A DNA stretch of 64,000 nt from Bacteroidales bacterium (lineage in GTDB: Bacteria; Bacteroidota; Bacteroidia; Bacteroidales; G3-4614): positions 6,450 through 70,449 of the forward strand of contig JAFYPQ010000048.1 in the NCBI GenBank assembly GCA_017559955.1. The letters run 5' to 3'. Below, in pieces: positions 17,845-26,262 of this stretch. Below the pieces are notes generated by a model that saw only the letters and a list, made by a program, of their open reading frames with translations, made no database searches and had not been told where the DNA came from. The position numbers were made by a program, and so were the translations under genes. Position 1 is the first letter of the stretch. The number at the start of each line of letters is the position of its first letter.

Positions 17845-18990
17845 ATGGCGGAATCGAATTTTGTAGATTACGTTAAAATATATTGCCGTTCGGGGCGTGG
17901 AGGAGCAGGCTCAACTCACCTTCGTAGAGAGAAGTTTGTAGCCAAAGGCGGACCCGACGGCGGAGACGGAGGTCGTGGCGGACACATAATTTTACGTGCT
18001 AACCGCAACTACTGGACTTTACTTCACCTGAAATACTCTCGACACGTTTTTGCCGGCAACGGTGAAAGCGGGAGCAAAGCTCGTAGCTTTGGAAAAGACG
18101 GAGAGGATAAAGTAATTGAGGTACCTTGCGGAACAGTTGTATTTGATGCAGATACAGGCAAATATATTTGCGAGGTTACAGACGACGGAGAAGAGAAGAT
18201 ATTACTTAAAGGAGGACGAGGAGGTTTAGGAAACTGGCATTTTAGAACCGCCACAAACCAAACTCCACGTTTTGCTCAACCCGGAGAGGATACCCAAGAG
18301 TGTACAATTATTCTTGAACTTAAACTTTTAGCTGACGTTGGTTTGGTAGGCTTTCCCAATGCAGGGAAATCAACACTATTGAGTGCAGTATCGGCTGCAA
18401 AGCCAAAAATAGCAGACTACCCATTTACTACTCTTGAACCAAACTTGGGAATTGTATCTTGCAGCGACAGCCGCTCGTTCATTATGGCAGACATCCCTGG
18501 TATTATCGAGGGAGCAGGAGAAGGCAAAGGATTGGGATTGAGATTCTTGCGACACATAGAACGCAACTCTCTTTTACTATTTATGATTCCTGCCGATGCC
18601 AAAGACATTGCCAAAGAGTACGAAATTTTGCTTAATGAGTTGGAGACATTCAATCCCGAACTTTTAGACAAGGGAAGAGTTATTGCTGTAACAAAATGCG
18701 ATATGCTTGACGAAGAACTTATGGATGCAATCAAAGCAGAGTTACCTAAAGATGTTCCTTCTGTAATGATTTCGTCGGTTACAGGATTTGGTGTTACCGA
18801 ACTTAAAAACCTTCTATGGGATATTTTAAATAGCGAAGAGAACAAGATTACAACCATAACCCACCGCAACCTTGATGTTAACCGCAAACGCAACGAAGAA
18901 GACGATTTTGATTTGGAACTCGACCAATTCGAGAGCGATGATGAAGAAGAGGTTGACGGGTTCTACTACGAAGAGGATTGGGATGAGTAG
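17845..18990 (+). CDS. obg: GTPase Obg/CgtA
   Basis: 381 aa. Gly-rich Obg fold ([30 protein letters not shown]) and G domain ([17 protein letters not shown]), with a long acidic C-terminal tail. Confidence 0.97.
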
Positions 18991-19060
18991 TTGATAGTTG
19001 TTAGTTATCAGTTGTTAGACATATTAGACTAATTGGACCAATTAGATATATAAGATAAAC

Positions 19061-19093
19061 GGAGTTGCACACTTGAAGTGCAACTCCGTTTTT
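19061..19093 (+). terminator. Rho-independent terminator downstream of obg
   Basis: Perfect 10-bp stem ggagttgcac / gtgcaactcc with a 7-nt loop, followed by gttttt. It lies between convergent obg and the 740-aa gene. Confidence 0.8.
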
Positions 19094-19130
19094 ATAGCAA
19101 GTAGGATTAGCCTAGCGTTTATATCTCTAC

Positions 19131-21353
19131 TCAATATTGATCCCAATAATTTTTCTCAAGATATGACTCTGCATGATAATCTATCAATTTATCGCACTCT
19201 CCTCTTACAAGCCTGCCTTTTTCTGTTTCAGGATACTTTTCCGCAACTGTTTTAAAATTGCACAACTGATAATTTAACTCCGAAGCAACATCGTAATCCG
19301 TAACCATTGCCATTGCCTCGGCAACAATCTCCTTTGCTTTTTCTTTAGCAAATGGAGCATACTTCTCTTTAGGCAAATAAGACCTCCACCCTTTGTAATA
19401 TTGAGTAAGTCCCCAACAAAACCCAAACGAGTTGCGTATTCCTATTGCATACTTCACCATAAGTTTAGCCTTTTTGTTTGGGTTCTGCTCATATTTTATA
19501 GATTTTTCTAATCTACACATCTCTTTGGCAAACGAGAGTTTGAAATAGTTGTCTTTGCCATACTTTACCCTCTTTTCTGAGAATGGATCATAATCAATCC
19601 ACACATTAAGATGGTCTTTATACGACTCATCTACATTCTTAAAATAGCTCAATGCCTTCGCATATTTCATCTCACGCAAATACTGGGTTCCAATTATATC
19701 GTTTAAATAATCACTATTAATATAGCCTCTCTTATTCAAAAATCTATCAAACTCAGTTTTTGGGTTTTGAGTTCTTATCAAATAATTATTTGCCACCTTA
19801 ACCCCCAATGTGTCAATCATTTTAAAGAAGTCATTAGAATAGTCGCTTCTATTATAATAATCTGAATATCTGTATTCCTCCATTGTATAGCTTCTAACTA
19901 CTTGTCGCTCATAATCTCCACTATAAGATTCAACCCACTTATAAGTATCCCGTTTGTTAACCAATAATAGCAATCTATTATCTGCCATATTTGCCAATTG
20001 CAAAGCTCTAATAGATTTTCCTGCCGCAATCATGCGGGGCGCAACTTCAGAAAGCAAAATACGTCTTAGCATATCGTTCCAATAATAGAAGCTAAGTCCA
20101 TACTCCATTTCAGAGGCACCTTCTGCCACTTTTTGTTCTACCTCTTTATTGATATTTGTTGCTATTTTATTATCGAGCCACTTTAGTTGTTCAAACAATT
20201 TAGCTTCGTATGAGGCATCATACTTATATATTTTTGCATCGAGATAAATTCTCAATACCTTTATAGAATCCCTAAGATAGTCATCTTTTACACATCTCTC
20301 TGCCATAGCCAAATACGATGAAGCATTTAAATAATCACCTTTTAAATCGGTCAAAAAAGCCAATGTATAATACCACAAAGCCTTATTCTTTATCTTTTTA
20401 TCCTTTAGCATTTCGAGCGATAGAGTACGCAATTTATCTATATCTCTATTCACTCTTTCTACTAATTTTGGATCGTAAGGTGAATCATAGGTAGTTTTAG
20501 CCCAACACAGATCTAACTCTACATCTCTCACATGTGCTTGTAACATAGAAGTTATTTTAGCATCATTGGAATGGTAACTACAAACTTCTGCGAAAGCCTC
20601 AATGTAAGACAACTCCTTCCCTCTTATTTTTGAACAATACATGATAGAAGATACATCTCCTAATTGAGCAAAATATTCAATCCATTTCTCCGATTTGCCT
20701 ATTCTAAATTCTGCACCTGCAATATAGGGTAGCGCAAGGCGACGCATAATATTGCCTTCGGGAAGTTTTGAGATATCTTTCTCCCATAACTCTACACACT
20801 CTTCATATCTGCCCAACGTTGTTAATGCTCTGACAGCTTGGAGCAGATATCGATCTCTAAGACGTTTGTCCTTTGATGCCAACGACATCTCCAGCACCTC
20901 CTCTATTGATATTTTTGTTCCAAAAGTCATTGTTGGATAGTACCATGCCGAGTTTATTCTAGAGCGAATATACTCGTTTGTTTTTGCCAACATAAGAAAT
21001 TCCAATATAGTTGTATCTTTGTTTGTAATCCACTTTGAAAACTTATTGGTATAGTTAAAAGGTCCGTCGTTATAAATCTTCTCAAACTCATCTAAAGGCA
21101 TTTTATATACAACCTCATAAATATCCTTCAATGGTATCTCTTTAGATGTAAGTTCTTGCCATGCAATACAATTGGCTTTATACTCCGACTCATCAATATC
21201 TGCGCCTAAATCTTTATCATGACGAGGCGAATTCACTCTATACATAAAGAGCTCGCTAACAGGATATGCAGAGCCACTACACGCAAGAGTTTCATTAACA
21301 CAAAAAGCTAATAGTAAACTAATAAGCGAGAATTTTATCAATTTCTTCATCAC
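19131..21353 (-). CDS. Hypothetical lipoprotein, probably all-alpha/TPR-like
   Basis: 740 aa. Lipobox NETLAC|SGS. Rich in Y/W/K with helical-repeat character and no recognisable catalytic motif. Its start overlaps the upstream gene by 35 nt. Confidence 0.55.
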   Translation of the reverse strand: MMKKLIKFSLISLLLAFCVNETLACSGSAYPVSELFMYRVNSPRHDKDLGADIDESEYKANCIAWQELTSKEIPLKDIYEVVYKMPLDEFEKIYNDGPFNYTNKFSKWITNKDTTILEFLMLAKTNEYIRSRINSAWYYPTMTFGTKISIEEVLEMSLASKDKRLRDRYLLQAVRALTTLGRYEECVELWEKDISKLPEGNIMRRLALPYIAGAEFRIGKSEKWIEYFAQLGDVSSIMYCSKIRGKELSYIEAFAEVCSYHSNDAKITSMLQAHVRDVELDLCWAKTTYDSPYDPKLVERVNRDIDKLRTLSLEMLKDKKIKNKALWYYTLAFLTDLKGDYLNASSYLAMAERCVKDDYLRDSIKVLRIYLDAKIYKYDASYEAKLFEQLKWLDNKIATNINKEVEQKVAEGASEMEYGLSFYYWNDMLRRILLSEVAPRMIAAGKSIRALQLANMADNRLLLLVNKRDTYKWVESYSGDYERQVVRSYTMEEYRYSDYYNRSDYSNDFFKMIDTLGVKVANNYLIRTQNPKTEFDRFLNKRGYINSDYLNDIIGTQYLREMKYAKALSYFKNVDESYKDHLNVWIDYDPFSEKRVKYGKDNYFKLSFAKEMCRLEKSIKYEQNPNKKAKLMVKYAIGIRNSFGFCWGLTQYYKGWRSYLPKEKYAPFAKEKAKEIVAEAMAMVTDYDVASELNYQLCNFKTVAEKYPETEKGRLVRGECDKLIDYHAESYLEKNYWDQY

Positions 21354-22281
21354 TATAATTCTTTAATTGTTCATCATCTAGATGGTATAATATATTACCG
21401 CATGTGGGTTGTCCTAAGCGAGACTCAACAAATGCTTTTACTTTGTAAATCTCTCGGCATGTAGGTCGCTCTCGTCTTATATATTCATTCTCAACTGATA
21501 CGCTATCGTTTTCTGAAACAATTGAAACGAACTTATCATCTTTAAATTTAACACCCCAACCAAAAAGAGGATATGCATAAGAAAGTGGCAAGCTGTATGA
21601 CTTTTTCTTTTTTATATATGGTTTTACATTTGTTATATCAAGAATAGAATTTCTTGTTTCAGGATCTTTCAAGGATCCTGTATTGTATAACATTAAGACT
21701 CCTTTATCAACAGGGGGTGGCATTTCTCGTAGCTGATGCAACCTAATGGTTGCACTCAACTTTATTCCTCTATCTGCCAATATAGCTTTTGCTTTTCTAC
21801 ATAAATCATCATAGATGTATTTTGTGGTTTTTGTCCAATCACAATCAAACTGAATCTCCTTAATTTCGCCACACTTATTGTAATTACACATAGCCAACAG
21901 GCGTTCTACTATAAGCGAAGCATAATCGACATCACAATTCTGCATGTTTTTGAGAGCACCAAGCGTTATATATGTAACAGGAACAATCTCGATATTTTCG
22001 GGCACTTCAGAGATGAATTTAGTAGTGGCTATTGGCTCTACACCCTCCTCTCCTGAAAGAAAATCCCGTAGCAATGCCACATCAAACATTCTCATATAAA
22101 TTCGTTCAATGTTATGCTTCTCCATAAACGATACCTCAGATGAGTCAAGTTCAAATGTTGTCTTCCAATAATATATCGAATTATGACCCTTAACCTCACT
22201 TTTTTTCTCCCGAGAACAACCCAAAGTAATTACAACTATAAAAGTGAACAAACAGATATATTTCATTAATCTCATAACCAC
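21319..22281 (-). CDS. Hypothetical lipoprotein (possible TIM-barrel-like fold)
   Basis: 320 aa. Lipobox ITLGC|SREKK. An alternating beta/alpha-like pattern (IERIYMRMFDV, IEIVPVTYI, IKEIQFDCDW, IKLSATIRLHQL) suggests a barrel, but this is inference only. Confidence 0.5.
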   Translation of the reverse strand: MVMRLMKYICLFTFIVVITLGCSREKKSEVKGHNSIYYWKTTFELDSSEVSFMEKHNIERIYMRMFDVALLRDFLSGEEGVEPIATTKFISEVPENIEIVPVTYITLGALKNMQNCDVDYASLIVERLLAMCNYNKCGEIKEIQFDCDWTKTTKYIYDDLCRKAKAILADRGIKLSATIRLHQLREMPPPVDKGVLMLYNTGSLKDPETRNSILDITNVKPYIKKKKSYSLPLSYAYPLFGWGVKFKDDKFVSIVSENDSVSVENEYIRRERPTCREIYKVKAFVESRLGQPTCGNILYHLDDEQLKNYSDEEIDKILAY

Positions 22282-22460
22282 TCCTCCTCTTCAAAAGTTA
22301 CGTTACTATATTCAACTATTTGCAAAGAGGCATACTCTGCTACCTCATAATTCTTTTCATGAAAATTGAGTTGGAGTTTCTGTTCTCTCAAAAAATATGC
22401 ACTTATGGCAATATAAGTGCCACAAATCATTGCCCCTGTAATTAACATTTTACGTTTCAT
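22272..22460 (-). CDS. Small single-TM protein, first gene of the lipoprotein operon
   Basis: 62 aa. One hydrophobic helix (LITGAMICGTYIAISAYF). It overlaps the next gene by 10 nt and is preceded by a -7 box. Confidence 0.4.
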   Translation of the reverse strand: MKRKMLITGAMICGTYIAISAYFLREQKLQLNFHEKNYEVAEYASLQIVEYSNVTFEEEEWL

Positions 22461-22497
22461 ATATTTTGTTTTTTCTTATTAATGATGTTTTACAGTT

Positions 22498-22505
22498 CAA
22501 ACTTA
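22498..22505 (-). promoter_or_regulatory. Putative -7 promoter box (TAnnTTTG on the minus strand)
   Basis: Plus-strand caaactta is taagtttg on the minus strand. It lies 38 nt upstream of the 62-aa ORF ATG and immediately after the upstream terminator. Confidence 0.35.
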
Positions 22506-22508
22506 AGC

Positions 22509-22555
22509 AAAAAAAACTTCGTACTGCCGAGTTTAAGACTCAACTGTACGAAGTT
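22509..22555 (-). terminator. Rho-independent terminator ending the LytTR two-gene unit
   Basis: On the minus strand, aacttcgtac ... gtacgaagtt forms a 10-bp outer stem with an inner gagt/actc stem, followed by T8 (A8 at 22509-22516 on the plus strand). It lies 74 nt after the 300-aa gene stop. Confidence 0.7.
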
Positions 22556-22628
22556 ATTACGGGAGTGTATGAAGTATTACTTTATATGCAATTTCATAGA
22601 GAATCACTCTTCATATTATTCAAATTTT

Positions 22629-23531
22629 CTAGTTTTTACGCCATATCAAATATGATATATTTCGAGGTATCTTCTTTTTATATTTATAATATAAATCTTC
22701 GCCAAACTCATGCATTTGACCATTTTCATCAACAGCCCAACCATACGATGATGATCCAATTAGATATATCGCCTGATCGACACCAAGGTCCACCAATACC
22801 TGAGAGAAGTCATGGAATGACTCTTTTGTAAGACTTTCAACCATAAATATCTCCCCGTTTCGGTCGCATATCGACCTTCTTACCGACTTTGTCTTAATCT
22901 CATTCTCTACAACAGCCCCATTTTTCACAAGAGGATATTGTCTAAAGAAATACCCCCCTGTCTCTGTTGCCTCCTCGAACAAAGGAGAATTGTCCTCCAC
23001 TCCAATTGTTATATTACCATCTATCGAAGCACAAAATCCCCTCTTTGACAATCCCCACGCTTTAGGCTCCCCCTTTAAAACGAAAGCTCCTACAATTCCT
23101 CCATTATCGGCACGTACATCTGCTGCTTGCGCTGCGTATATAATCGTAGTGTCAGTTCTGTTCAATTTCCCTATATGCAATGACATAGTTGCATTATGAG
23201 GTATATATATTCTTATAGGCACATCATTTATTAATGTGTCTTTTATCTCAACAAAGCCTGTTTCTGACAGTCCAACCTCTCTACCTAACCTTTCAAGCTC
23301 CACAGTTTTCTCCTCGGGAAGAGCAACAACCTCAGGCTCAAAAAGCGAGGGTTCAACCATTTGTTGTTCGCTAATTTTCTTATTGTTTAATGTAAGTAGC
23401 ATTACTACTCCAATAACAACTATTGCTATTAGCGAAACAATAATATACATATTGCGTGAGGATTTATTATCCTTACTCTCCTCACCTACCACTCGTATTT
23501 GGTCGTCTCTAATATCTTTTAAATCCTTCAT
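22629..23531 (-). CDS. Single-pass membrane protein with an extracytoplasmic phosphodiester-glycosidase (NAGPA/DUF2233)-like domain
   Basis: 300 aa. A 27-aa charged N-tail, one TM helix (MYIIVSLIAIVVIGVVMLLTL), then a ~250-aa domain with NGGIVGAFVLKG...RRSICDRNGEIFMVES...VLVDLGVDQAIYLIGSSSYGW. This resembles the NAGPA family pattern, but the usual LDGGGS motif is replaced by LIGSSS. Confidence 0.45.
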   Translation of the reverse strand: MKDLKDIRDDQIRVVGEESKDNKSSRNMYIIVSLIAIVVIGVVMLLTLNNKKISEQQMVEPSLFEPEVVALPEEKTVELERLGREVGLSETGFVEIKDTLINDVPIRIYIPHNATMSLHIGKLNRTDTTIIYAAQAADVRADNGGIVGAFVLKGEPKAWGLSKRGFCASIDGNITIGVEDNSPLFEEATETGGYFFRQYPLVKNGAVVENEIKTKSVRRSICDRNGEIFMVESLTKESFHDFSQVLVDLGVDQAIYLIGSSSYGWAVDENGQMHEFGEDLYYKYKKKIPRNISYLIWRKN

Positions 23532-23533
23532 AG

Positions 23534-23896
23534 CTATTTCACTTCGCTTTCAAACATCTCTTTTAATTGTTTTAATGCCTCTTTTGATGCCGTTACCGTA
23601 TGACTAAACGACGAGACATTAGAAAGCACCAATTTTTGTTTGGCTATATTTATATAGTATATATATGAACTATTAACAATTAAACTCTTTCCTATTCGGA
23701 TAAAGTTTTTACCATCATTACCAAGTTGCGAAGAGATCATCTTCTCAATCTGACCTAGCTGATATGAAACCATACGGGTTTCATTATCTGCCTGTACCAA
23801 CGTTGAATAGTTGCCATCAGATGATATATATACGATTTGATTTGGGTCGATACGCACCAGATCAACCGATGTTGATATAATAAGTCGTCTCTTCAT
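23534..23896 (-). CDS. Stand-alone LytTR DNA-binding domain protein (no receiver domain)
   Basis: 120 aa. VRIDPNQIVYISSDGNYSTLV...FIRIGKSLIVN is the LytTR signature. There is no other domain. It ends 2 nt before the membrane-protein gene. Confidence 0.75.
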   Translation of the reverse strand: MKRRLIISTSVDLVRIDPNQIVYISSDGNYSTLVQADNETRMVSYQLGQIEKMISSQLGNDGKNFIRIGKSLIVNSSYIYYINIAKQKLVLSNVSSFSHTVTASKEALKQLKEMFESEVK

Positions 23897-23913
23897 ATAT
23901 TTAATTTGCTATA

Positions 23914-23921
23914 CAAATATA
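23914..23921 (-). promoter_or_regulatory. Putative -7 promoter box for the LytTR unit
   Basis: Plus-strand caaatata is tatatttg on the minus strand, 18 nt upstream of the ATG. This would give a very short leader. Confidence 0.3.
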
Positions 23922-24030
23922 TTGTTGTTATTTTATATTACAAAACCATAATTTAGAGAATGTATGAAATTACCTTTTAAACGTACAAAATAGATATCTC
24001 TTCGTTTCGTAGAATAAATTCTATAACGCA

Positions 24031-24063
24031 ACAAGGGATTGCCCAAATTGGGCAATCCCTTGT
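24031..24063 (-). terminator. Hairpin terminator downstream of pnp
   Basis: Perfect 14-bp stem acaagggattgccc / gggcaatcccttgt with a 5-nt loop, 31 nt after the pnp stop. The trailing U-tract is weak. Confidence 0.6.
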
Positions 24064-24093
24064 CTATTATTTAGTGGTTGTGTTTGCAACTAC

Positions 24094-26262
24094 TTATTTG
24101 TTCTCTTTGCGTGGAGCACGTGGAGCTCTTTGAGGACGATCTTCCCAACCTTCTGGTTTAGGCTGCAAAGCTTTCATTGACAAACGGAATTTACCTGTCT
24201 TCTTGTCTATCTCAACAAGTTTAACTGTAACTTCGTCGCCCTCTTTGATTCCAGACTCTTCCATTGTCTCCAAACGTTTGTAAGCAATTTCAGAGATGTG
24301 CAACAATCCATCTTTACCAGGCATAAACTCAACAAATGCACCAAATGCAAGGATTGATTTTACTTTTCCTGTGTAAGTCTCTCCCTCCTCGGGTATTGCT
24401 ACAATTCCTTTAATGCGAGCAAGTGCTGCATCGATTGATTCTCGGTTAGATGCTGCAATTTCAACACGACCGCCCTCTTCTACCTCTTCAATTGTTACTA
24501 CTGCTCCAGACTCCTCTTGAATTCCTTGGATAATTTTTCCACCGGGGCCGATAACGGCTCCAATCATATCTTTAGGAATCAAAATAGTTTCAATGCGAGG
24601 TGCGTGAGGTTTGAAGTCTTCACGTGGCTCTGGTATTGTATCAAGGATTTTACCAAGGATGTGCATACGTCCGTCGTGTGCTTGCATCAAGGCTTTTTCA
24701 AGAATTTCGTATGGTAGCCCGTCAACTTTTATATCCATTTGTGTTGCTGTGATACCATCTTTTGTTCCTGTTACCTTGAAGTCCATATCTCCTAAGTGGT
24801 CCTCATCACCAAGAATATCAGAAAGAACTGCATATTTTTGGTTGTCTGTAATCAATCCCATTGCAATACCTGAAACTGGTTTCTTAATCTTAACACCAGC
24901 GTCCATCAACGCAAGTGTTCCAGCACATACTGTAGCCATTGAAGAAGAACCGTTTGATTCTAAGATGTCTGATACTACACGAACTGTATATGGATAGTCG
25001 GCTGGAATCATTCCTTTAAGTGCACGACATGCCAAGTTTCCGTGTCCAACCTCACGACGTCCAACTCCACGAGATGCTTTAGCCTCGCCTGTTGAGAATG
25101 GAGGGAAGTTGTAGTGTAACAAGAAGCGTTGGTGCGATTGATCAAGAACATCATCAACAATCTTCTCATCAAGTTTTGTTCCAAGTGTAACTGTTGTCAA
25201 TGATTGAGTTTCACCACGAGTGAAGACTGCAGATCCGTGAGGTCCGGGTAGATAATCTACCTCACACCATATAGGACGGATTTGTGTTGTTTCACGTCCG
25301 TCAAGACGTTTTCCTTCATCAAGAATGCAACGACGCATAGCCTCTTTCTCTACATCGTGATAGTAACGTTTAACCAGTGCTGTTTTAGCCTCACGATCCT
25401 CTTCTGTCATTGACTCCAAGTACTCATTCAACACAGCCTCGAATGCCTCACCACGTGCGTGTTTGTTTGCATTTCCTGATGCTGCAATTGCATAAGCTTT
25501 ATCATAACATTTTTCACGAACATCTTTACGAAGATCCTCATCGTTTACTTCGTGGCAATATGTACGTTTTACTGTTGTTCCGCACATTTCAGACAACTCC
25601 AATTGTGCTTGACATTGTACTTTAATTGCATCGTGAGCAAATTTCAAAGCGTTCAAAAGATCCAACTCTGAAACCTCGTCCATCTCACCCTCAACCATCA
25701 TGATGTTCTCCATAGTAGCACCTACCATCAAGTCCATGTCAGCTTTTGCCAACTCTTCATATGTTGGGTTGATTTTGAACTCGCCATCGATACGAGCCAC
25801 ACGAACCTCTGAGATTGGTCCGTTGAATGGGATATCCGACACTGCAAGTGCTGCTGATGCTGCCAATCCTGCAAGTGCATCGGGAATATCTTTTCCGTCA
25901 GCCGAGAACATTACGATGTTTACGTATACCTCTGCATGATAATCATCGGGGAATAGTGGACGTAATGCACGGTCAACAAGACGAGATGTCAATATCTCAT
26001 AATCTGACGCTCTACCTTCACGTTTTGTAAAACCTCCTGGAAAACGTCCGATTGACGCAAATTTCTCTTTATACTCAACTTGCAAAGGCATAAAATCTAC
26101 ACCTTCATTTGCATCTTTTGCTGCACACACTGTTGCCAAAAGCATGGTATTTCCCATGCGAACCTCAACCGCTCCATCAGCTTGTTTTGCTAACTTCCCG
26201 GTCTCGATGGTGATTACTCGTCCATCACCTAAATCGATTGTCTTCTTAATCGGATTAATCAT
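24094..26262 (-). CDS. pnp: Polyribonucleotide nucleotidyltransferase (PNPase)
   Basis: 722 aa. Two RNase PH domains plus KH and S1 domains ([15 protein letters not shown]), with typical N-terminal [11 protein letters not shown]. Confidence 0.98.

Follow-up and report, generated by a model that had tools for sequence, protein, structure and literature searches.

A stand-alone LytTR regulator and its membrane partner with a NAGPA-fold ectodomain: a candidate LytTR Regulatory System of Bacteroidales

By which route could a DNA-binding protein that consists of nothing but a LytTR domain be controlled? This question is raised by two adjacent genes in a 64,000-nt stretch of DNA, referred to below as the window, which comes from contig 48 of a 1.9-Mb Bacteroidales metagenome-assembled genome (MAG, 86% complete). 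The first gene encodes a stand-alone LytTR protein of 120 aa (23534-23896) and the second a single-pass membrane protein of 300 aa, called here the partner (22629-23531). All coordinates given without a locus number are positions of the window, and all genes of the module to which the pair belongs lie on the minus strand. LytTR Regulatory Systems (LRS) have been proposed as a class of signalling systems in bacteria; the only characterised members are those of Streptococcus mutans, and their natural signals are unknown (PMC6193735). A previous reading, made from the sequence only, had assigned the pair to the LRS type, and this assignment was supported by the direct repeats of 21-bp period found upstream of the operon promoter and by the co-conservation of the two genes. 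Three checks by computation, on the fold, on the co-conservation and on the pseudo-enzyme idea, did not go against it. We estimate the probability that the pair is an LRS of a new, Bacteroidales-specific type at about 0.65.

Co-conservation of the regulator and the membrane partner

When the 120-aa protein was analysed with Pfam, the LytTR domain (PF04397) was recognised over residues 13-115 with an E-value of 5e-12. No second domain was detected by Pfam and the protein contains no hydrophobic segment, in agreement with its earlier description as a LytTR-only protein. A single-sequence search of the PDB with this protein gave no matches. Its stop codon TAG is followed by two nucleotides (ct) and then by the ATG of the partner, as had also been noticed before. 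DNA binding by the 120-aa protein and the sign of the regulation that it would exert are both predictions.

The conservation of the pair was followed by scanning one genome per prokaryotic species for the partner and, in a second scan, 401 evenly sampled Bacteroidales species genomes. The first scan yielded 21 loci, all of them in Bacteroidales MAGs from animal guts, and a LytTR gene was present directly upstream of the partner in every locus covering that side (19/19). In the second scan, 15 of the 401 genomes contained a partner match at E<=1e-10; all ten matches at E<=1e-48 had a LytTR gene upstream, and so did one divergent copy with 27% identity. The partner was not found in 393 Bacteroidota genomes outside Bacteroidales. 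Altogether, the adjacency was seen in about 30 Bacteroidales genomes and contigs and persisted at partner identities of 27-46%; the two genes, whose co-conservation had been made a test of the previous reading, are adjacent in every partner locus that covers both.

The reverse search led to a similar picture. Among the 12 genomes that contain a stand-alone LytTR homologue at E<=1e-24, ten have a NAGPA-like partner gene adjoining, mostly with a 4-nt overlap or a gap of 1-2 nt. The remaining two are G276, in which the LytTR gene is an orphan, and G140, in which it is followed by a different, TonB_C-containing partner that will be described below.

Some loci depart from the common arrangement. 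Locus L024 (5874-6900) holds a degenerate copy made of a LytTR fragment (residues 1-42), a partner without its N-terminus and the last 45 residues of p740, a cargo protein of the window; this copy represents the remains of a deletion or, alternatively, an artefact of the assembly. In L065 (G276) and L069 (G009:C28), LytTR genes of the same family are orphans, lacking a membrane partner; the next gene, about 135 nt further on, codes for a secreted esterase-like protein in L065 and is PurU-like in L069. Stand-alone LytTR proteins that are more distant (35-40% identity; L071, L084, L085, L086) are encoded within a few nt upstream of a gene for an FHA-domain protein of 217-228 aa, and these are apparently LytTR pairs of a different, undescribed type.

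Ectodomain fold and cytoplasmic motif of the partner

An AlphaFold2 model of the partner was built on 59 diverse homologues, taken from a family of about 520 clusters at 50% identity. The model has a mean predicted local distance difference test (pLDDT) value of 90, with low confidence for the N-terminal 25 residues, and displays a cytoplasmic N-terminal tail, a single long helix at residues 26-49, a linker and a beta-rich domain that extends from about residue 91 to residue 300. The helix corresponds to the single transmembrane (TM) segment assigned previously. The extracytoplasmic domain, for which about 250 aa had been announced, is present, but its folded part (22632-23261) covers about 210 aa.

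At the sequence level, the evidence for membership of this domain in the NAGPA family is borderline. The PF09992 (NAGPA) score was 23.9 bits by hmmscan, where the cut-off is 25, and 25.2 bits in a six-frame search of the genome; some close homologues of the partner already carried the PF09992 annotation. Besides NAGPA, Pfam and NCBIfam gave only TM-helix noise, and nothing useful came from NCBIfam. A single-sequence search of the PDB with the partner produced no matches, and a search with the family profile found only Slr0280 (5H3K; E=0.005). The fold of the modelled ectodomain is, by comparison, clearly that of NAGPA/DUF2233. When the model was compared with the PDB by Foldseek, each of the best 13 matches was to a NAGPA catalytic domain or a bacterial DUF2233 protein, among them 6PKI, 6PKG, 6PKY, 6PKU, 6U11, 3OHG and 5H3K, with E-values from 2e-9 to 8e-7 and a probability of 1.0, and the next, unrelated match had an E-value of about 0.1. 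The likeness to NAGPA that had been suspected from the sequence was thereby found in the predicted structure.

In NAGPA, activity depends on the Asp of an invariant DGGGS motif (D286 in the human enzyme; PMC13474241). In three independent alignments (the family profile against Slr0280, the same profile against two canonical DUF2233 proteins of other Bacteroidales, and hhalign), the segment A-I-Y-L-[VI]-G-S of the partner family falls on A-L-N-L-D-G-G-G-S. In the window, it is LIGSSS (residues 257-262) that aligns with L-D-G-G-G-S of the canonical DUF2233 proteins, exactly the substitution proposed earlier. At the position of the catalytic Asp, the 59 sequences have V (45), I (5), T (5), M (2), N (1) or C (1), and in none of them D. 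Furthermore, the canonical DGR motif is replaced by E/x-S/T in the partner family. As the catalytic Asp is lost, the ectodomain probably binds a ligand instead of cleaving it. However, since the family keeps invariant polar residues of its own, the non-catalytic status of this domain is likely but not proven.

On the cytoplasmic side, the alignment of the 59 sequences revealed a single conserved segment, DIxDDEIRIIG, which corresponds in the window to DIRDDQIRVVG at residues 6-16 (23484-23516). It is a candidate contact with the LytTR protein. A subclade of partners has N-E-V-Y-F-L-G in place of the canonical form, and the two variants of the N-terminal motif coincide with clades.

The modularity of the partner is highlighted by locus L068 (G140:C101, 1498-2372), where the LytTR gene is followed by the gene for a 173-aa protein beginning MKDEINENEVYFLG. 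This protein contains the same N-terminal motif and one TM helix, followed by a TonB_C domain (Pfam, E=4.5e-7) and not by the NAGPA fold. The LytTR protein of G140 is closest to that of G028 (63% identity), whose partner has the same N-terminal variant as the G140 protein and an ectodomain of the NAGPA type. As judged from these sequences, the ectodomain has been swapped in G140 and the tail and TM helix have been retained, which argues that the tail serves the regulator and that the ectodomain is the input module.

These results also bear on another explanation, according to which the partner functions as an enzyme of the envelope by means of a re-built active site, co-expressed with LytTR and perhaps regulated by it, and neither a sensor nor an inhibitor. 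The NAGPA fold is an enzyme fold, many charged or polar residues of the ectodomain are invariant (D138, R140, D142, N143, K163, R197, Q198, R218), and the cargo includes another glycosidase-like fold, that of p320. On the other hand, both canonical motifs are lost throughout the family (DGGGS to [VI]GS and DGR to E/x-S/T), an enzyme would not need a conserved cytoplasmic motif, its interchange with TonB_C behind the same motif and TM helix is not expected, and the strict adjacency to the LytTR gene with near-zero gaps would have to be accommodated. We regard a working enzyme as unlikely and retain a sensory role for the ectodomain.

Operators, cargo genes and genomic setting

When the 200-nt regions preceding the LytTR genes were aligned, ATTTCATACAT was seen twice, at a distance of 21 bp, in nearly every locus. 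When the pattern TTYRTACA-N13-TTYRTACA was searched with one mismatch allowed, two matches were obtained in the window against 0.09 expected, and none of 100 shuffles gave two. The first match is the auto-operator (23961-23989), formed by the half-sites TTTGTACG (23982-23989) and TTCATACA (23961-23968) with a 21-bp period. It precedes the promoter of the pair (23914-23944), in which a -33 TTTG (23941-23944), a 19-nt spacer and a -7 box TATATTTG (23914-23921) can be read, that is, the -33/-7 arrangement of Bacteroidetes. The second match, an exact one, is the cargo operator (22545-22573), with the half-sites TTCATACA (22566-22573) and TTCGTACA (22545-22552) and the same period; the -7 box TAAGTTTG of the cargo promoter (22498-22505) lies 39 nt after its second half-site.

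The distance between operator and promoter is fixed. Each of the 37 operator sites collected from 29 loci is followed by a TAnnTTTG box, which begins 39-40 nt past the second half-site and deviates from this pattern at one position at most; in the 20 auto-promoters of this collection, the box is perfect. In 16 related loci, the operator-promoter arrangement is found in front of cargo genes. Repeats of 9 bp with a 12-bp spacing upstream of the operon promoter are a hallmark of LRS (PMC6193735). It might be argued that the two genes are unrelated neighbours and that the repeats are due to chance or are not regulatory. Such an explanation is very unlikely in view of the adjacency maintained at partner identities as low as 27-46%, the excess of operator matches in the window and the distance kept in 37 of 37 sites.

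When the whole genome of the window (G000) was scanned, the two operators of the window were the sole sites located before genes with the correct promoter geometry. Eight other loose matches were treated as chance; the best two, one before an NAD-synthetase-like gene and the other at a spot without a gene, are not accompanied by the correct geometry. As G000 contains no other credible operator, its regulon is predicted to be the module itself.

A terminator-like hairpin (22517-22554) followed by T8 (22509-22516) separates the cargo operator from the cargo -7 box, and the 5' arm of this hairpin overlaps the second half-site. The 106-nt stretch containing this hairpin folds at -27.4 kcal/mol (z = -4.4) and none of 200 shuffles folds as well, a result which bears out the strength attributed to the terminator before; a simple terminator scan did not list it (22509-22554) because of an internal bulge. 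Hairpins are present at this position in related loci as well, with other sequences, such as GAACCCCGAAAA...TTTTCGGGGTTC in L018, L020 and L021. The pair had been described as a self-contained transcription unit. It does have its own promoter and terminator, but the cargo operator precedes the latter and the cargo -7 box follows it. On this arrangement, the terminator appears nested inside a promoter predicted to be LytTR-dependent, and the pair and the cargo seem to form one regulatory module.

The operon at 19131-22460, named previously as the first candidate for the regulon, thus carries the same operator as the pair. Its transcript would begin with a 62-aa open reading frame (ORF), p62 (22272-22460), which has one hydrophobic segment and was seen in the genome of the window only: tblastn gave no match for it in any related locus, and p320 starts in other loci at the position where the 62-aa ORF starts in the window. 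Either the lineage has a small gene of its own here, or the ORF is spurious and lies within a 190-nt insert.

The second cargo gene encodes the lipoprotein p320 (21319-22281), for which no Pfam match was obtained, GH18 included. Its AlphaFold2 model, built from nine sequences only, has a pLDDT of 80 and adopts a GH18-like TIM-barrel fold: the best 50 Foldseek matches were all GH18 enzymes or chitinase-like proteins (best E-value 1e-7, TM-score about 0.45-0.5), with SleL, chitinases, YdhD and SI-CLP among them. The motif E-x-Q-x-D-C-D-W-T is invariant in p320; its D-x-D-W part falls where the modelled strand of residues 142-147 ends, and a Thr is placed, in a register assigned by eye, where the DxDWE motif of GH18 has its catalytic Glu. 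As D-C-D-W-T stands in place of D-x-D-W-E, p320 may be a second fold of the N-acetylglucosamine (GlcNAc) type without its catalytic acid. The third gene encodes p740 (19131-21353), a predicted lipoprotein of 740 aa which was always downstream of p320 in the synteny comparison. Neither Pfam nor the PDB provided a match for p740, and among its 469 homologues none has a Pfam domain on record and the few named ones are called hypothetical. Single-sequence PDB searches with p320 and p740 returned only non-significant matches (E >= 0.7).

The genes behind the second operator vary from locus to locus. The combination of p320 and p740 was found in about ten loci, the window included; an alpha-2-macroglobulin lipoprotein of 1816 aa takes this place in L010 and L012, secreted TPR proteins in L014, L022, L016 and L017, a WG-repeat lipoprotein in L023 and a lipoprotein of no known type in L029. 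Every type of cargo bears a signal peptide or a lipobox. In L018, an insert of 0.8 kb parts the partner gene from the operator, which stays beside the cargo gene and not beside the partner, and the gene that the operator faces in L016, L017 and L029 is transcribed divergently. Since the operator stays with the cargo in L018, precedes divergent genes in the last three loci and is combined with variable cargo, the proposal that the second operator drives the neighbouring cargo genes is supported at the level of gene arrangement. The pair with its operator seems to behave as a portable cassette, set beside differing envelope-protein genes in different genomes. The insert of L018 (6933-7678) consists of two small genes which are a nucleotidyltransferase/HEPN-like pair by motif alone.

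In the window, the whole module (5.1 kb, 18991-24093) forms an insertion that separates two convergent genes, obg (17845-18990, plus strand) and pnp (24094-26262, minus strand). A search of 11 further species genomes from this genus did not reveal the partner gene in any of them. In four of these 11 genomes (G008, G001, G005, G007), obg and pnp are separated by about 140 bp, and in three further ones (G006, G003, G011) by 250-630 bp; the identity of pnp to that of the window is 90-92% in three of the first four genomes and 88% in G005. In G009, the gap between obg and pnp (L048, G009:C21, 1505-5521) contains the gene for a 1250-aa secreted protein in place of the module. The region upstream of this gene is 74% identical to the LytTR promoter and retains one ATTTCATACAT half-site, and the gap looks like a cargo replacement at a recombination hot spot. 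Because obg and pnp are nearly adjacent in genomes of the same genus and a different gene occupies the site in G009, the site appears to be a swap point and the 5.1-kb module an accessory insertion, probably acquired horizontally. A link of the module to resident genes of the window is unlikely, the module being an insertion absent from the 11 genomes searched. A repeat of about 100 nt right after obg (18988-19095), which includes a hairpin (19057-19091), marks one edge of the module. Many copies of it were found in both orientations in G000 and in every same-genus genome searched, and it may be an intergenic element resembling a repetitive extragenic palindrome (REP) or a miniature inverted-repeat transposable element (MITE).

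Proposed mechanism and comparison with known systems

From these data, the following scheme can be proposed. The LytTR protein would bind the pair of TTYRTACA half-sites with their 21-bp period, which precede the -7 box by about 39 nt and lie roughly at -80 to -50 from the start site. Once bound, it would switch on both its own two-gene operon and the adjacent cargo operon (p62-p320-p740), each from its own promoter. The co-translated single-pass partner would hold the regulator inactive at the inner membrane through DIxDDEIRIIG. In the periplasm, the NAGPA-fold domain would bind, and not cleave, a ligand, plausibly a GlcNAc-containing molecule of the envelope or a glycan. Binding of this ligand, or loss or degradation of the partner, would free the regulator and lead to positive feedback and to induction of the cargo. 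Both the sequestration or inhibition of LytTR by the partner and the ligand sensed are what we infer from the comparisons reported here.

The opposite sign can be envisaged as well. The partner might recruit, stabilise or activate LytTR at the membrane, both proteins being needed, so that its effect would be the reverse of that in streptococcal LRS. The sign of regulation is not fixed by the sequence, and the fixed stoichiometry resulting from translational coupling is compatible with an obligate complex and with an inhibitor alike. However, orphan LytTR genes of the same clade without a partner (G276, G009) are easier to understand if the regulator works alone, a membrane-tethered activator would have to reach two chromosomal promoters, and the LRS membrane partners characterised so far are inhibitors (PMC6193735). 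A positive partner is thus improbable, and an inhibitory one is kept in the scheme.

Several points weigh against an LRS-type sensory pair. The positive-inside rule is ambiguous for the partner of the window, although it is clearer in the family alignment. The ectodomain retains the invariant polar residues D138, R140, D142, N143, R197, Q198 and R218, which could form a different catalytic site instead of a binding site. The distance of about 15 nt from the second half-site to the -33 TTTG is larger than the 4-11 nt reported for streptococcal LRS. In the search for -7 boxes, ties were broken toward position 39. Finally, many loci are closely related and several are near-duplicates, so that the site counts overstate independence.

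A wider interpretation is put forward tentatively, and we hold it to be doubtful as a whole. The pair would be a horizontally mobile switch for envelope surveillance in gut Bacteroidales, in which a dead-enzyme receptor of the NAGPA type for GlcNAc-containing material (peptidoglycan or capsule fragments, host or fungal glycans) releases a LytTR activator, and the latter induces protective envelope proteins behind a portable operator, be they alpha-2-macroglobulin, p320 as a GH18-like pseudo-chitinase together with p740, or TPR and WG-repeat proteins. DIxDDEIRIIG would then act generally as an anti-LytTR module, open to fusion with NAGPA-like or TonB_C sensors.

The interest of the pair lies in what this Bacteroidales variant would bring beyond streptococcal LRS, namely a ligand-type ectodomain, a short candidate interaction peptide and a sharply defined operator. 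The predicted regulon is small and can be read straight from the genome sequence, and signal, mechanism and output are each testable. The partner would also be a bacterial example of an enzyme fold apparently re-used as a receptor. In addition, the module offers a first putative regulatory context for the orphan lipoprotein families p320 and p740, and for alpha-2-macroglobulin in some gut Bacteroidales. In the literature that could be searched, no paper was found that describes this type of pair or links LytTR with DUF2233, NAGPA or phosphodiester glycosidase.

The closest known systems are the LRS of S. mutans (HdrRM, BrsRM and three others; Zou et al. 2018, PMC6193735). They share with the pair a soluble LytTR regulator without receiver domain, a co-transcribed membrane protein, and repeats that are the same before the target genes as before their own promoter. 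Unlike HdrM and BrsM (DUF2154 and similar), to which no similarity was detected by Pfam and NCBIfam, the partner of the window is a single-pass protein with a NAGPA-fold ectodomain. As it is unrelated to these proteins, the pair does not belong to the HdrRM/BrsRM family. The half-site TTYRTACA, the Bacteroidetes -33/-7 promoter with its distance to the repeat, and a cargo of envelope lipoproteins in place of bacteriocin or competence genes also set the window apart.

The LRS-like operons of Bacteroides (Zou et al., PMC6193735) are nearer in taxonomy, since they too occur in Bacteroidia and combine a LytTR protein, a membrane protein and direct repeats upstream of a -33/-7 promoter. In contrast to the window, their membrane gene (NfeD/DUF2154) is upstream of the LytTR gene, so that the order is reversed, and the LytTR regulator is itself embedded in the membrane by TM segments. 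The partner domains differ, and so do the repeats, which measure 11 bp, are spaced by 11 bp and have another sequence (TCCGGTATTCA).

For the individual proteins, the comparison leads to enzymes. The ectodomain has the fold of NAGPA, the mannose-6-phosphate uncovering enzyme, and of bacterial DUF2233 proteins (6PKI, 6PKU, 3OHG, 5H3K), whereas the partner family has [VI]GS for DGGGS, is without DGR, and is anchored by an N-terminal TM helix with a conserved cytoplasmic tail. Similarly, p320 shares the TIM barrel and D-x-D-W with GH18 chitinases, the cortex-lytic enzyme SleL and chitinase-like lectins, but differs from GH18 by the Thr aligned by eye with the catalytic Glu and by the absence of a Pfam GH18 match; in this respect it resembles the non-catalytic chi-lectins.

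Finally, the pair can be compared with extracytoplasmic function (ECF) sigma factors and their anti-sigma factors. The analogy is one of logic only, since LytTR is a predicted DNA-binding activator and not a sigma factor, and the partner contains no anti-sigma domain. In both cases, however, a small cytoplasmic transcription factor is co-translated with a single-pass membrane protein, which combines exchangeable extracytoplasmic sensor domains with a short N-terminus in the cytoplasm to which the factor would bind; autoregulation, predicted for the pair, is a further common trait.

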